From Phycisphaeraceae bacterium (GTDB lineage: Bacteria; Planctomycetota; Phycisphaerae; Phycisphaerales; Phycisphaeraceae), in the NCBI GenBank assembly GCA_963674705.1, contig OY771506.1, positions 4,480,001 through 4,544,000 on the forward strand: a stretch of 64,000 nucleotides of DNA, in the 5' to 3' direction. Positions 29,728 through 35,162 of this stretch are shown here, piece after piece. The first letter of the stretch is position 1, and every line of letters starts with the position of its first letter. The notes under the pieces are model-generated. The model was not told where the DNA came from, did no database searches, and saw nothing but the letters and a program-made list of their open reading frames with translations. The translations under genes and the position numbers were made by a program.

Positions 29728-30777
29728 ATGAACTTGTCAAAGGGTCAAGTCGGCTTGGGCATGCTTGTTTGCGCAGCCGCAATTGCACTTCCAACCAGCG
29801 CAAACGCCGCTGCTTATGTGCAAGTCAAAACGCAAGCTGAGTTGAACAATGGTTCGGGCCTACCCTATCAACGCGCGATCGCTACTTACGATGACATCAT
29901 CTACACGGTGAATGCCAGCAGCTCCGACTTTGCGATCGTTAAGATCGATGGCGGCACAATCACCACCATCGCGACGATGGCTTCCACACTCGCCGACCTC
30001 GGCGCTGCTTACAACCCTGACGATCCGTTCCCCGGCAACGGTTTGGAAATCGTCGACAGCGGCGCAGCGGTTCAGATGATCGACACACGCAACGACGAAG
30101 TGTATCGCTTCGACACCACCACCGGCACGGCCAGCATCTATGTAAGCCAAGCTGACATCGTCGCGGAAACCGGACTGGCTTCGGCCGCGCTCGCGAACTA
30201 CAGCGGCACGACCAACACCGGCATCCCCGTGTTCTACGATACGACAAGCGACAACCTGCTGATCGCCCCCTCCGCCGGCGTGGTTGACACATTGATCAGT
30301 GCTGTGGACATCGCTGCCGCCAACTGCGAGATGTCCAGCGGCATCACCGCAGACCCCAGCGGCAATCTCTACTGGGGCTCGAATGCCAGCGATGCGATCT
30401 GGAAGTTTGATGGCACGAACCTCACGATGATTGCGGACGTTGCCGACTTCGGTGCCGCTGCAAACAGCTTCAGCGGTGACATGATCTACGCACCGGACGG
30501 CCTGATTTACTTCCGTGCCGATCCCGACAACAACAACCGCGGTCTGTTCTCCATCGACCCCAGCGCGGTCGACCCGGGCAGCACGGTCACCGTGGTCCTG
30601 AGCGAAGCCGAACTCGACGCCGGCCCGATGGCCAGCAGCTTCACCTCCACGCTTTCGTGGTATGACGGCAAGCTTGGTTTCCACAAGATCTCCGACAGCG
30701 GCTACTACCTCGTCCCCGAACCGGCCTCCCTGGCCCTGCTCGGCCTCGGCGCCCTGGCGATGTTCCGTCGTCGCTAA
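29728..30777 (+). CDS. PEP-CTERM surface protein, probable beta-propeller
   Basis: Strong RBS (AAGGAG), signal peptide ending ANA, ITADPSGNLYW and MIYAPDGLIYF blade-like repeats, VPEPASLALLGLGALAMFRRR. Confidence 0.9.
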   Translation: MNLSKGQVGLGMLVCAAAIALPTSANAAAYVQVKTQAELNNGSGLPYQRAIATYDDIIYTVNASSSDFAIVKIDGGTITTIATMASTLADLGAAYNPDDPFPGNGLEIVDSGAAVQMIDTRNDEVYRFDTTTGTASIYVSQADIVAETGLASAALANYSGTTNTGIPVFYDTTSDNLLIAPSAGVVDTLISAVDIAAANCEMSSGITADPSGNLYWGSNASDAIWKFDGTNLTMIADVADFGAAANSFSGDMIYAPDGLIYFRADPDNNNRGLFSIDPSAVDPGSTVTVVLSEAELDAGPMASSFTSTLSWYDGKLGFHKISDSGYYLVPEPASLALLGLGALAMFRRR

Positions 30778-30890: not shown

Positions 30891-30910
30891 AACGGGGTCT
30901 GACCCCGTTT
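30891..30910. repeat. RAYT-associated hairpin repeat, copy 1
   Basis: AACGGGG-TCTGA-CCCCGTTT, touching the RAYT stop codon. Confidence 0.9.
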
Positions 30911-31622
30911 TAGGGATTTGCCTTGGGCCGGCCGGGTCTACGGACGGTGGATTCGAGGCCGAAGGTTTGGATGGTGCGGTTCCGCCATTGATCATTGCCG
31001 AACGGTGAACAGCGGTTGGCGCTGGTGCGCAGTGCGTTCAGTTCGACTTCGCTGAGCGGGGTGTTGACGGTTCGTAGCCAGTTGCGGGGTCGGCCGCGCT
31101 GGGGCGATGTCAAACCACGGATGGGCCAATCGCTGAGTAGTTGCTGTTGATCAGTATCGCCAGACTTCCAACGCCATAATCCTGACCATCTCCACGCTGC
31201 CGCCGACTCCACCAATCCCGCACGCATCGCATTGCGTTCGACGTATCGGCAGACGGTCAGCAGATGTTCGTTGCTTTGGATCAGAAAGGATTTGAAGCGT
31301 CCCTGGTACAACGGCCCGTCTCCCACGCTCTTGTGTGCAACCCGGTAACGCCCGGCGTGGGTCGTGGTCAGCCACTGCATGAACGGGCCAAGCGCGCCGT
31401 CGGCCTCGGTCTTGAGGACCAGGTGCCAGTGGTTGCCCATCAGGCAGTAGGTCAGCAACCGGACAGCCCCGCCGCTTCGTTCGACCGCTTCAGCCAGGAC
31501 CTTTTCGAACGCTTCGAAGTCGCCATCCTTGCGAAACATCCGCCACCGCCCGGCCGTACGGCCGTACGGTTCAGGACATGGTAAGCATAGCCGCCGACAT
31601 CAACGCGTGGAGGTCTTGGCAT
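30910..31622 (-). mobile_element. REP-associated tyrosine transposase (RAYT, TnpA-Y1/HUH), frameshifted by an 8-bp tandem duplication
   Basis: HUH motif YCLMGNHWHLVL, LYQGRFKSF, catalytic Tyr in RYVERN, and WRWS. The true N-terminus MPRPPRVDVGGYAYHVLNRTA starts at 31622 in another frame. Removing one CGGCCGTA unit (31551-31566) restores a 705-nt ORF. Confidence 0.9.
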
Positions 31623-31656
31623 ACGTGTAGTTTAGGTCCGGTCGCCAAGCCCGTCA

Positions 31657-31695
31657 AAACGGGGTCTGACCCCGTTTCTTCCGCCGTTTCTTCCG
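31657..31695. repeat. RAYT-associated hairpin repeat, copy 2, with 12-bp junction duplication
   Basis: AAACGGGG-TCTGA-CCCCGTTT (31657-31677); CCGTTTCTTCCG occurs twice in tandem (31672-31695). Confidence 0.9.
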
Positions 31696-31919
31696 CGTTC
31701 CGTGGCAACCGGATCGACGTGGCTGCACGCGACGCGATCGTAAACGATCCGGTTCTTCAACCGCTATTCCACAGTCAACGGCTGCGGAGTTTCTACACGC
31801 GTGGTCCCGATTCCCGCGACACACTGACGGGGCGTTGGTGGGACATGACAACCCCCGGTCAGTGGAACGCACATGTAACCCGCTACGGGCCGGGCGGCAC
31901 GCTGCTACCCACGCGATGA
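31695..31919 (+). pseudogene. 5'-truncated polymorphic (Rhs-type) toxin C-terminal fragment, possibly a restriction-endonuclease-fold nuclease
   Basis: AFRGNRIDVAARDAIVNDPVLQ...RGPDSRDTLTGRWWDMTTPGQWNAHVTRYGPGGTLLPTR*. It has no start of its own, begins exactly at the hairpin junction, and carries a PD...D-x-T-T pattern. Confidence 0.6.
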
Positions 31920-31957
31920 CGATACGAACAGAGGTATAGTATTGCCGAGAGAAACCG

Positions 31958-32863
31958 ATGAACAAGAAGAAACTGCAAGAACGGTGGTCGGCACAAGACA
32001 TCAAGCGTGTGGCGTCGGCGCTGCGGTCTGGCGGGGAGATCGCCGAGTCGCTGAGCCCGTTCGGCCGACACGAGGAGAGGATCGACCTGCGTGGCTTCCC
32101 TATGCCAGCACCGGTGAGGATCGAAAATGCCACGCTTGTGGGCGTGGACCTCAGTGCTACGGAGCTGTCGCCGCTCTGGATGGAGCATTGCCAGTTGAAA
32201 AATGTCCTGTTCGATCATGCGAAACTGGACGGCTTCAGCGATCAGGGCAACCGGTTTGAATCCTGCCGGTTTTTGGGCACCTCGTTCGTGGGTGGGCGAT
32301 TGGGTTACCAGGGTTCGCAGTATCACGGATGCACTTTTGAGAAGTGTAAATTCACGACGGCGGGTGGAATTCGTGCGGAGTTTTATGGATGCCGTTTCAC
32401 CGACTGCAAGCTCAAGGGTGTAGACTTCGAGGCCTCGGCCTTTGAGGATTGCATCTTTGAGGGGAAGCTTGCCGACGTCTGGTTCCGTGGCGGGTACCCA
32501 TATGAGGGCTACGAACGCAAGTTCGGGACGCCTAAGACAAACCAGATGAAGAACGTCTCATTCGCCGGTGCTGAGTTGGAACTTGTCGCTTTCAGTAATG
32601 ACTGTGACCTGACTACGGTGGTCTTGCCGGAACAGGGCGAGTACAGGAAATATGACCGTTGGGCGAGGCGTTTGTTGCGACTGAAGGATGAAGCGAACGG
32701 TTGGGAGGAACCTGATCGAAAGGAAGGGCAGTTCTTCGTGCAGGTGACGATGCCTCATGCTCAGACGCAGGAGTGGATGATTGTCAATGTAGATGATGTG
32801 CGTAAACACATTGCCCCGCATGCGACGGAGCGGATCATCGAATCGCTGGACAAGCCGATTTGA
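31958..32863 (+). CDS. Pentapeptide-repeat protein, putative toxin immunity protein
   Basis: Repeats such as CTFEKCKFTT, AEFYGCRFTDCKLKGVDFEASAFEDCIFEG. It lies directly downstream of the toxin fragment, and its G/T-ending codon usage differs from host genes. Confidence 0.8.
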   Translation: MNKKKLQERWSAQDIKRVASALRSGGEIAESLSPFGRHEERIDLRGFPMPAPVRIENATLVGVDLSATELSPLWMEHCQLKNVLFDHAKLDGFSDQGNRFESCRFLGTSFVGGRLGYQGSQYHGCTFEKCKFTTAGGIRAEFYGCRFTDCKLKGVDFEASAFEDCIFEGKLADVWFRGGYPYEGYERKFGTPKTNQMKNVSFAGAELELVAFSNDCDLTTVVLPEQGEYRKYDRWARRLLRLKDEANGWEEPDRKEGQFFVQVTMPHAQTQEWMIVNVDDVRKHIAPHATERIIESLDKPI

Positions 32864-32900
32864 GGAAGAAACGAGGAAGAAACGGGGTCTGACCCTGTTT
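32862..32900. repeat. RAYT-associated hairpin repeat, copy 3, with 11-bp junction duplication
   Basis: GAGGAAGAAAC twice (32862-32883), running into AAACGGGG-TCTGA-CCCTGTTT (32880-32900). Confidence 0.9.
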
Positions 32901-32997
32901 TTCGGGTGGCTTGCTTAGGGAGAGCCGTGCCGAGCGCGGCGAGGTTTTATGTCGTCGCGGCTGGTGGCTGTGCGGGTTTGTGGTTGTTGATGTGAAG

Positions 32998-33043
32998 AGC
33001 GCGACCGATGGTCGCGGCTATACAGGTGGGTGTGAGTTCATTG
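32998..33043 (-). repeat. REP-like repeat family C, copy 1
   Basis: GCGCGACCGATGGTCGCGGCTATACA...GGTGGGTG.GA.TTCATTG; second copy at 34270-34318. Confidence 0.7.
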
Positions 33044-33159
33044 TAAAAGACAAAAACCCGGCCGGGATGGTCGGGCATTAGACGTGAAGCAAGAGCGCTA
33101 AGCCGTAAGCGGCTTGACGAGTTGGTCGTGTTTGCTTTGTGATTCGTTACTTAAGCAAC

Positions 33160-33206
33160 CCGGCCCTCACCCCGCCCCCCCCGGAAGTCTCCCGGGGGGA
33201 GAGGGA
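33160..33206 (-). repeat. Palindromic repeat family A, inverted copy
   Basis: CCGGCCCTCACCCCG...CCCCCCGG-AAGTCTC-CCGGGGGGAGAGGGA; its 5' part is near reverse-complementary to 28443-28458. Confidence 0.6.
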
Positions 33207-33361
33207 GGAAAGATAACGGGGAGGATTTGGTTGGTGCGGGCTTGTTGTAGGCGTAGGCGGGCGATGTCGATGGGTTGCCAGGTGCGCCAGACTTTGAAGG
33301 TTGGGGTGAAGCCGTAGACGCCGTTGCCGACTTTTTGGGTGGCGTTTTCTTTGAGGTACAA
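33167..33361 (-). pseudogene. Truncated coding fragment of unknown family, starting at hairpin copy 4
   Basis: YLKENATQKVGNGVYGFTPTFKVWRTWQPIDIARLRLQQARTNQ, with strongly C-ending host-like codons. It starts 5 nt from the hairpin, has no RBS, and runs out into repeat family A. Confidence 0.45.
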
Positions 33362-33366
33362 GAATG

Positions 33367-33387
33367 AAACGGGGTCTGACCCCGTTT
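33367..33387. repeat. RAYT-associated hairpin repeat, copy 4
   Basis: AAACGGGG-TCTGA-CCCCGTTT. Confidence 0.9.
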
Positions 33388-33427: not shown

Positions 33428-34108
33428 TTAATCGAGAGCGGCTTCTGCACCGGCGGCCCAGAAGCCGGCGGAGAGGTCCAGGTAGATTTCGTTGACGCCG
33501 GGGCCGGAGGCGCCGTTGGTGAGGCGGCGTTCGGTGGTGCCGTAGTGGTAGTAGGTGGGTTCGCGGAAGAAGTTGCGGTTGTCGACGGGTGAGAAGTAGA
33601 CGTTGCTTGGAGCGGGATTGAGGTTCCAGTTGTCGGCGGCCCAGAAGCCGGGGTGCCTGTCGGTGGACATGTAATTCTCGAGGTCCTGCGTGAAGTCGTC
33701 GTTGTTGTTGACGCGATAGGTGTTGCCGTGGTCGTACTCGATCGCATCGAATTCATTCAAGGGGCAGATGTAGACTTCGCTTTCGGCGGGGAGGAGGTTG
33801 AGCTCATCGTAGAGCGCCTGGATGCCGAAGGTTTCGGGGCCGTTGCTGGCGGTAATTGGTGTGCTTTCACGGCCGGGCGCGACGCGGAAGCCTGCGCCAC
33901 CATAGGCTATGCGCGGGGGGACGGTTTGCTTGGGGTTTTCGGATTGGTAAGCGCTGCTTGCGATACCGATCTGCCGGAGGTTGTTCATGCACTGGACGTT
34001 CTTGGCGCTTTTGCGAGCGGCGCTGAGGGCGGGCAGGAGGATGCCGATCAGCAGTGCGATGATGCTGATGACTACAAGCAGTTCGATCAGGGTGAAGGCT
34101 CGTTTCAT
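33428..34108 (-). CDS. Prepilin-type N-terminal cleavage/methylation protein (paralog 1)
   Basis: [32 protein letters not shown] (start 34108), VYICP, and C-terminal YYH...[14 protein letters not shown]. Confidence 0.9.
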
Positions 34109-34269
34109 ATCTAAGCTAATAGTATGACCGGCCGGGGCAAGAGTATCAACCATAAAGTTGACGGGAGCAAGATGTTGCAATGGGTTATTATGAAAATCGG
34201 TTGTAGGGAAGGCCGGCCATTGCGTGGGCGGGTGGGCCGGCCCACAGATTGAATCTGTGGGCTTCGATG

Positions 34270-34318
34270 CGCGACCGATGGTTGCGGCTTTACACCGTTT
34301 GGGTGGGTGGGATTCATT
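34270..34318 (-). repeat. REP-like repeat family C, copy 2
   Basis: GCGCGACCGATGGTTGCGGCTTTACA...GGTGGGTGGGATTCATTG. Confidence 0.7.
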
Positions 34319-34324
34319 GAGCGT

Positions 34325-34353
34325 GTGGATTCCCGCGTGCGTGGGAATGACGG
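34325..34353 (-). repeat. Palindromic repeat family B, inverted copy
   Basis: The reverse complement reads CCGTCATTCCCACGCACGCGGGAATCCAC, matching 28823-28851. Confidence 0.75.
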
Positions 34354-34445
34354 ATATAAAATACAGAGGGTTTTAGCGCAGCTTGACCATCAGTTGGTGC
34401 TGATGGTCAAGGCGTGTTGTTTGTGATGGGGAATTGCCTGGTTGG

Positions 34446-35162
34446 CTAATTATTAGTAGTACTCTCGGCGCCGACGGCCCAGAAGCCGGCGGAGAGGTCG
34501 AGGTAGAGTTCGTTGACGCCGGGGCCGGAGGCGCCGTTGGTGTAACGGCGTTCGGTGGTGCCGGTGTGATAATACGTTTCTTCACGGAAGAAGTTTCGGT
34601 TGTTAGGCGTACCGGTGTATTGATCGCCGTTGCCCGAGGTCGGAGAGAAGTAGACGTTGCTGGGCGCTGGCCTGAGGTTCCAGTTGTCGGCGACCCAGAA
34701 GCCTGAGTGCTTGTCACTGGACATGTAGTTTTCGAGGTTTTGTGTGAACGGGTCGGATGCGTTGACGATGTAGGTATTGCCGTGGTTGTTTTCTTCGACA
34801 TCGAAGGTATTAAGCGGACAGATGTAGACCTCGCTGTTACCTGCGATTAATCCCAGTTCATCAAAGAGGGCTTGGAGCCCGAACGTTTCGGGGCCGTTAC
34901 CCGTTGTGACAGGGTCGCTTTCGAAATCCGGAGCGACACGGAAGTTCGCTCCGCCAAGCACGCGCCGCGAGGGCATGGTCTGCCTGGGGTTGTCGGCCTG
35001 GTAAGCGCCGCCGGCGACACCGAGTTGATGGAGGTTGCTCATGCACTTGACATTCATGGCGCTCTTGCGTGCTGCGCCGAGTGCGGGCAGCAGGATACCG
35101 ATCAGCAGCGCGATGATGCTGATGACCACGAGTAATTCGATCAGAGTGAAAGCTCGTCGCAT
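34446..35162 (-). CDS. Prepilin-type N-terminal cleavage/methylation protein (paralog 2)
   Basis: [32 protein letters not shown] (start 35162); shares long identical blocks with paralog 1. Confidence 0.9.

Follow-up and report, generated by a model that had tools for sequence, protein, structure and literature searches.

TIRtrons are elements in which the gene of a Y1 transposase, termed TIRYT, lies between terminal inverted repeats (TIRs) carrying the motif GGGGWSAS, and the same repeats are also dispersed singly, in dimers and in clusters, some of them self-complementary (PMC3733652, Di Nocera et al. 2013). The sections of that text available to us describe no cargo, cut position or biochemistry. 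The GGGGWSAS/TIRYT consensus has been tied to TnpA-Y1 subclass 2.1 (PMC6006769, Quentin et al. 2018), or RAYT Group 1 (PMC5581495, Bertels et al. 2017), which, according to the accessible parts of these two papers, has the highest duplication rate among the true RAYT groups. The element described here occupies positions 30891 to 33387 of a 64,000-nt stretch of a Phycisphaeraceae genome (contig OY771506.1; hereafter, the window), where four palindromes enclose in turn a TIRYT gene, a cut toxin gene with a presumed immunity gene, and a copy of host DNA. The Y1 gene lies between outward-reading repeats, orthologous slots in a sister genome hold swapped cargo, and the breaks fall at a set distance from the repeats. 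It is probable that TIRtron repeats are hotspots of capture and erosion and that the enzyme drives the capture. The element itself is known, but its cargo capture is apparently undescribed, and no account of cargo capture at TIRs was found in the open-access literature.

In integrons, the tyrosine recombinase IntI gathers co-oriented whole genes into long arrays, while CRISPR spacer acquisition duplicates a palindromic site of about 30 bp on insertion. The sole recombinase-like gene in the window block is the Y1 enzyme, with no IntI or XerD, and no Cas1-like gene was found in the loci read. Unlike CRISPR spacers, the repeat-bounded segments here vary in length from about 0.3 to 3 kb and serve as genes rather than as guides. 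A duplicated repeat is seen at L088, L059 and L001 (L-numbers label individual excised loci) but not at copies 2 and 3 of the window. The rAID-1 arrays (10.1101/471110) likewise hold orphan immunity genes between repeats in association with a recombinase; as far as the accessible text goes, that enzyme is a XerD tyrosine recombinase acting on co-oriented whole genes in long arrays, whereas here an HUH enzyme is found with genes cut in the middle, in either orientation, in short and scattered slots. The REPtrons of E. coli, Stenotrophomonas and Marinomonas (PMC8266576) include the best structural match of our enzyme, the E. coli protein 4ER8. In the portions of that work available, they cut at CT or CA dinucleotides chosen with a GTAG guide, whereas the breaks at our loci follow distance and not dinucleotide. 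A TnpA-REP enzyme of subclass 2.1 has also been proposed to diversify protein-coding DNA at prochlorosin genes (10.1101/2020.03.09.984088, Laurenceau et al.), but no link to inverted repeats was found there, the changes proposed are indels and not capture, and the preprint notes that causality is unsupported.

The genome of the window (G000) was compared with a sister genome of the same genus in one contig (G004) and with a more distant relative (G009); X1, X2 and X4 denote sequencing runs, represented by their contigs. A pattern search placed palindrome cores GGGGTCTGACCCC at 30894, 31661, 32884 (one mismatch) and 33371 in a single orientation, which confirms the four same-orientation copies of an earlier, preliminary description of this DNA; three of the four are exact, within 2.5 kb. 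Copy 1 (30891..30910) consists of two outward-reading GGGGTCWG repeats fused together and starts with TAAC rather than AAAC. Copy 2 (31657..31677), delimited by motif search and folding, is followed by copy 3 (32880..32900), the one with a mismatch, which carries CCCT. Each of the four folds into a short stem with a 3-nt loop (z −1.5 to −3.8), and the outward strand of the repeat, GGGGTCAG, fits the GGGGWSAS consensus of TIRtrons. G000 has 18 exact and 14 one-mismatch cores, where about 0.4 exact cores are expected from base composition, and G004 has 19 exact cores against none for a reversed control. A search allowing two mismatches is weak against shuffles, since four copies were reached in 9 of 100 shuffled sequences. 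The palindrome is present in 7 of 350 other genomes of the class and in none of the viral contigs. Short-read contigs bridge copies 1 and 4 with zero differences and also span 31650-32901; as the sister genome shows the same edges, an assembly artefact was rejected.

The gene between copies 1 and 2 (30910..31622, minus strand) matches PF01797 (35.3 bits against the Pfam cut-off of 23) and encodes the motifs NHWH and YVERNA, the latter containing the catalytic Y124. HWH is invariant in 23 homologs and Y124 is found in at least 90% of them. Its predicted promoter (31629..31657, minus strand; −35 TTGACG, 17 nt, −10 TAAACT, 6 nt to the ATG), as read from the sequence, begins at the inner edge of copy 2. 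The paralog at G000:291435-292136 is intact and belongs to a unit 93% identical to that of the window. The structure model of this paralog (pLDDT 89.6) had E. coli TnpA-REP 4ER8 as its top fold match (E 1.6e-7), followed by IS200/IS605 transposases; a sequence search of solved structures gave no meaningful match, and the fold search was required. The score for the RAYT equivalog NF047646, 51.4 bits, is below the cut-off of 80, and the window repeat has no GTAG foot. No C-terminal helix-turn-helix (HTH) domain (Bac_DnaA_C, HTH_23 or HTH_28) was detected, Y1_Tnp being the only match at E up to 1, and the model ends in a short helical tail. The enzyme resembles subclass 2.1/RAYT Group 1 in length (about 238 aa) and in the TIRYT consensus, but differs from the subclass, as described in the accessible parts of the sources (PMC6006769; PMC5581495), in having NHWH and YVERNA in place of NHVH/NH[YF]H and YIELNP/Y[IV]HLNP and in lacking a Pfam HTH tail. 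An inverted repeat of at least 13 nt is present at 22 of 36 homolog loci. Since a Y1 gene lies between inverted repeats, the repeats fit GGGGWSAS and their family is dispersed, enzyme and motif are, by sequence, those of a TIRtron and not of a classic REP-RAYT (REP, repetitive extragenic palindrome). The RAYT gene that had been placed between copies 1 and 2 is therefore indeed an enclosed Y1 gene, but one of the TIRYT type and in a frameshifted copy.

Close homologs of the transposase occur in Phycisphaeraceae records, and none was found on plasmids at E 1e-30. G000 has 14 Y1 transposase genes. Of the unit itself it has two copies, the 93% identical pair, unlike an IS200/IS605 insertion sequence with numerous near-identical copies and precise ends, although the position of the unit does differ between G000 and G004. 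A 76-bp piece left from the 3′ end of one transposase precedes, in G004, a second palindrome and a different allele (L061 2214-2290), suggesting that the enzyme gene itself was replaced at a palindrome. Elsewhere in G004, a 2.7-kb unit (L069 1940-4625) consisting of a repeat, a 423-aa gene, a repeat, another TIRYT gene and further repeats stands where G000 has a site without a repeat (G000:710079-710158), and whole units may thus move.

Swapped cargo is seen at the window site itself. G004 has orthologous flanking genes there and palindromes at both edges, with no transposase and entirely other cargo: an RraB-family fragment, a piece of an insertion sequence (IS), a short end resembling a toxin, and an SMI1/KNR4 gene with its stop codon right at a palindrome. 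G009 has neither palindrome nor cargo at this site. Cargo differs between G000 and G004 at the gpsA, groEL and glnA-region sites as well, and includes an RHS-core fragment and a WHH nuclease tip; the variable cargo that the preliminary description had proposed to look for between strains is borne out by these orthologous loci. When 11 repeat-bounded G004 segments picked by hand were compared with G000, six had no match, four matched only in pieces of up to 200 nt, and one was 99.9% identical. A repeat-bounded, low-GC cargo with that identity (L067 4298-5600 and G000:3501173-3502323) lies in flanks that are 95% identical, which suggests recent transfer between the two species. An empty and a filled form were also found: a single degenerate palindrome at G000:20414-20444 corresponds to two copies around a 125-codon gene in G004 (L088), with about 31 bp of the palindrome site duplicated.

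Toxin and immunity genes recur as cargo. In another genome (L100), a deaminase toxin frame without a start codon and an SMI1/KNR4 gene come after the same palindrome, beside a transposase. Among the RHS-core loci of G000 and G004, a repeat lies within the 3.2-kb locus in three of eight and just beyond it, or in degenerate form, in two more, compared with a repeat near 2.6% of random G000 positions. In G004, the immunity gene of each of three long RHS genes (L184, L187 and L188) is closely followed by a repeat, a TIRYT remnant or an IS4 end; repeats in this position may explain the frequency of toxin tips as cargo.

Copies 2 and 3 of the window enclose what remains of an RHS polymorphic toxin, a truncated C-terminal tip of 74 codons (31695..31919, plus strand), followed by a gene for a pentapeptide-repeat protein (31958..32863, plus strand). 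The toxin frame lacks a start codon, stays open into the left junction and is 57-63% identical to tips of RHS proteins elsewhere. The pentapeptide stop codon (32861-32863) falls partly within an 11-nt linker, at a distance of 16 nt from the palindrome stem. The cargo had been described as fitting between the hairpins with no slack, which holds for the open toxin frame and for the stop codon at the linker. Searches with the pentapeptide protein found 43 loci, and in 6 of the best 13, which were examined, the same toxin tip is directly upstream of the relative; on this gene order, the pentapeptide gene is predicted to provide cognate immunity. In L121 the tip forms the C-terminus of an RHS protein that is at least 1,991 aa long; RHS cores are present in L120 and L128. 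The window holds what is, from its sequence, an RHS tip cut in mid-gene together with its presumed immunity gene. The full-length, donor-type RHS gene in L121 has no repeat at the equivalent cut point. Such hairpin-free toxins might speak against delimitation by hairpins, but they are as expected for capture from arbitrary DNA.

Toxin-less genes of the pentapeptide family occur in unrelated hosts between two palindromes (L118) and 9 nt from a GGGG repeat (L127); in the latter, a neighbouring frame resembles the N-terminus of the enzyme and has no Pfam match. No Pfam or NCBIfam family was found for the toxin tip, and Tox-REase-9 is a lead only (Atlas 0.91; 143 of 256 features). Assignment of the pentapeptide gene to Qnr or HalA was rejected, the scores being far below the cut-offs. 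Paired with a predicted nuclease-type RHS tip, the pentapeptide-repeat protein may represent an unlisted immunity family. The foreign codon usage attributed to this segment was not upheld: the pentapeptide gene lies at the 51st percentile of the host, with a GC content at third codon positions of 0.68 against 0.69.

The segment between copies 3 and 4 had likewise been taken for foreign cargo, which was rejected, since its sequence (32901..33360, minus strand) was copied from host DNA of the gpsA locus, to which it is 95% identical. It comprises an intergenic region and the last ~64 codons of a native TPR-containing gene, cut in mid-gene 10 nt from the GGGG of copy 4. The variant and flanks of copy 3 are those of the resident copy at the gpsA locus (L001 9484). 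At copy 1, the left flank is resident, with a degenerate copy here in G004, and the right flank is part of the transposase unit, whose transposase 3′ end is closer to the G004 allele than to the G000 paralog. The cargo DNA of the window was found in none of 143 other genomes of the family. A 15.7-kb X4 contig from another study carries 31694-32863 with five differences in 1,170 nt and with both ends the same, but inverted; the hairpin of a transposase allele with 63 differences over 357 nt (~82% identical) is 84 nt away. Near-identical cargo beside so different a transposase indicates that cargo and enzyme travel separately and that the cargo keeps its ends.

The position of the junctions was assessed at 109 half-sites, covering all of G000 and the G004 loci fetched. 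Upstream of the repeat, AAAC alone is conserved; across loci, the information content at positions −6 to −11 does not exceed 0.22 bits, and the shared flank is therefore locus-specific and not a motif. A local duplication occurs at 24 of the 109 half-sites, of which 19 share 9-12 nt, compared with any duplication in 13 of 3,000 controls. Near same-strand pairs, which are not independent of one another, share 9-14 nt in 24 of 117 cases and more in one, against 21 of 2,640 distant pairs at 9-12 nt. The left junction linker of the window (31674..31694) contains a 9-nt flank repeated with a period of 12, probably a scar left where a break occurred some 10 nt beyond the GGGG, and the right junction linker (32862..32883) contains an 11-nt flank in two tandem copies.

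Break positions were also compared at the right end of the window site, in other repeat families and at filled sites (14 comparisons, hand-chosen). The resident right end (33361..33387) consists of a 10-nt flank and copy 4; three different sequences join these identical 10 nt, which in the G004 ortholog precede two copies, each joined to different DNA. In two further repeat families the break lies at 10 and 11 nt, in one case through a 152-bp deletion from the repeat into a toxin fragment, and a non-palindromic repeat family of a related transposase has the same break distance. The filled sites L059 3216/3858, L001 6532/9496 and L088 have 10-11 nt in common on one side and 7 nt on the other. 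The automated comparison gave the L088 pair a score of 0 because its left copy has a fifth G, but by reading the pair shares 10 nt. No dinucleotide is common to the breaks compared. The clustering of junctions 9-12 nt outside the GGGG suggests a fixed nick.

Cleavage by TnpA-REP leaves a 5′-phosphotyrosine, and the 3′-OH of an added oligonucleotide joins the cleaved 5′ end in vitro, as reported in the accessible part of PMC8266576. By analogy, the transposase, often acting in trans, would nick about 10 nt outside the repeat and keep the repeat-bearing 5′ end as a phosphotyrosine that any 3′-OH could resolve. Attack by the cell's own DNA would give short duplications or deletions starting at the nick, while attack by incoming DNA on both strands of the palindrome would give an insertion and a duplication of the ~30-bp site. 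DNA between two repeats could be released and re-inserted in either orientation. Selection would retain immunity genes and repeat-adjacent deletions would trim the remainder, so that toxins would come to be cut in mid-gene and stop codons to abut the junction. The window block would then be nested: a piece comprising transposase, cargo and host flank that came from a related strain's locus of the gpsA type and now lies between resident ends. This nesting is proposed because copy 3 and the next 460 nt match the gpsA locus and the transposase 3′ end is nearer the G004 allele. The part of the enzyme in the joining is something that we infer.

A wider reading, which is tentative and somewhat less likely to be right than wrong, is that TIRYT constitutes a widespread HUH-based DNA acquisition system. 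It would nick both strands about 10 nt outside the palindrome, join arbitrary DNA while duplicating the site as in CRISPR acquisition, let repeat-bounded pieces circulate from species to species, and provide hosts with a selected archive of toxin-immunity genes. If true, gene capture would have a third chemistry in addition to those of integron integrases and Cas1-Cas2, and the largest RAYT group would have a function in its hosts. The host role of RAYT-family enzymes is an open question, and the genomes predict precisely where the cut should fall: a nick set by distance, 9-10 nt outside the repeat, which arbitrary DNA would resolve. The intact enzyme copy and defined substrates make this directly testable. 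If enzyme-driven capture is right, orphan toxin tips and immunity genes would have a way to arise at a distance from RHS loci, and the enzyme would be one that can join arbitrary DNA at a short site.

Several observations weigh against capture driven by the enzyme at these repeats. Most palindromes are solitary and free of cargo, so that the claim of hairpins delimiting captured cargo stands for the differing cargo at palindrome junctions of orthologous sites and the recurrence of the same ends, but not for the family at large. The genome-wide link with islands is weak: 13 of the 18 repeat loci in G000 lie clear of every low-GC island, and of the 304 islands 5 are in contact with a repeat, against a mean of 1.5 and a maximum of 6 after shifting. 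One of eight SMI1/KNR4 genes in G000 and G004 is repeat-bounded, the other seven having no repeat nearby. In the seven other genomes of the class that carry the palindrome, all 11 loci are single copies within ~1.5 kb. Other genomes show duplications at 6 of 42 repeat ends, of 7-26 nt, enriched but not sharply peaked, and repeat-bounded segments at 3 of 9 loci with a called repeat; at 7 of 16 loci no repeat was called. Copies 2 and 3 of the window are not direct repeats, the 7-nt side of the filled sites fits poorly with two symmetric nicks, and the empty/filled pair can be read as gain or as loss. The X4 evidence is one metagenome contig of depth 3.8. The transposase reading frame of the window is shifted by an 8-bp duplication at 31551-31566, to which X1 contigs lend support (summed depth 21.6, of which 8 without the duplication and matching the paralogous copy).

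Much of this would also be expected if the repeats were REP-like passengers, the enzyme leaving local scars while cargo enters by homology-assisted illegitimate recombination or hairpin slippage and the repeats survive in tolerant variable regions. Solitary copies, some of them in frame inside host genes, and the majority of low-GC islands and SMI1/KNR4 genes without a repeat agree with this, and loss from a filled to an empty site requires no enzyme. We consider it unlikely, as the breaks fall about 10 nt outside the shared motif and neither within it nor at the stem base, the non-palindromic family has an equal break distance, site-specific flanks are duplicated around cargo, and identical cargo ends recur inverted. 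Still less probable are true integron-like cassettes that would be excised in circular form and enter a dedicated site beside the enzyme in an ordered fashion, even though cargo is reused with fixed ends in the X4 contig, the site is duplicated on insertion, and the palindrome next to the transposase promoter is often where cargo begins (the window, L001, L061, L100 and L099). Genes of the cargo are cut internally and found in both orientations, some of the cargo is host DNA, many slots lack a transposase in cis, and the palindrome clusters are short and mixed with insertion sequences. No circle junction was found in the contigs of four runs, in which rare forms are dropped; of the circular and empty-site forms previously suggested, the empty/filled pair with its ~31-bp duplication is what was recovered. 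A joint from 31681 to 32872 in X1 and X2 (depth 8, sides 30-31 nt) was set aside as a repeat artefact and not counted as excision. With breaks outside the hairpin, the ordered, integron-like array of the preliminary description is not sustained, and the repeats are, on these comparisons, better described as a set of hotspots. The least probable account, a very doubtful one, has an IS4-family element moving the cargo by inserting into repeats, with the Y1 enzyme incidental. An IS4 transposase (NF033592 above cut-off) or IS4 ends do abut repeats of three families at several loci in both genomes, but these ends lie inside the core and not 10 nt outside, and the window block, the L088 pair and cargo B of L059 have no IS4 end. 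Capture and erosion at TIRtron repeats, driven by the enzyme, is the account that we favour.

The IS4-family element itself (450 aa) ends precisely inside repeats at L003 3701-5175, L064 5031-6535, L063 5201 and L076 4351. It apparently duplicates part of the core and has the look of an IS that targets repeats.

The block is flanked on the left by a PEP-CTERM protein gene (29728..30777, plus strand), which is orthologous in G004 and G009 and is followed by a terminator-like hairpin, and on the right by a DUF1559/N-methyl prepilin-like gene (33428..34108, minus strand), orthologous in G004. Palindromes lie in frame inside host genes at G000:2956469, G000:3681074, L094 1501 (G004 only) and L165 1501 (a gene of G264). 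Judging from their translations, we take the genes hosting in-frame palindromes to be grpE-like, heavy-metal ATPase-like and, in G004 only, ligA-like; the insertion in ligA is a lone palindrome unit of ~33 nt. Further families of dispersed palindromic repeats with many genome copies are present in intergenic DNA at 32950-33030, 33140-33215 and 34269-34294 of the window. At 33428-35162, two tandem DUF1559/N-methyl paralogs (77-87% identical pieces) stand amid PEP-CTERM genes, where G009 has one.

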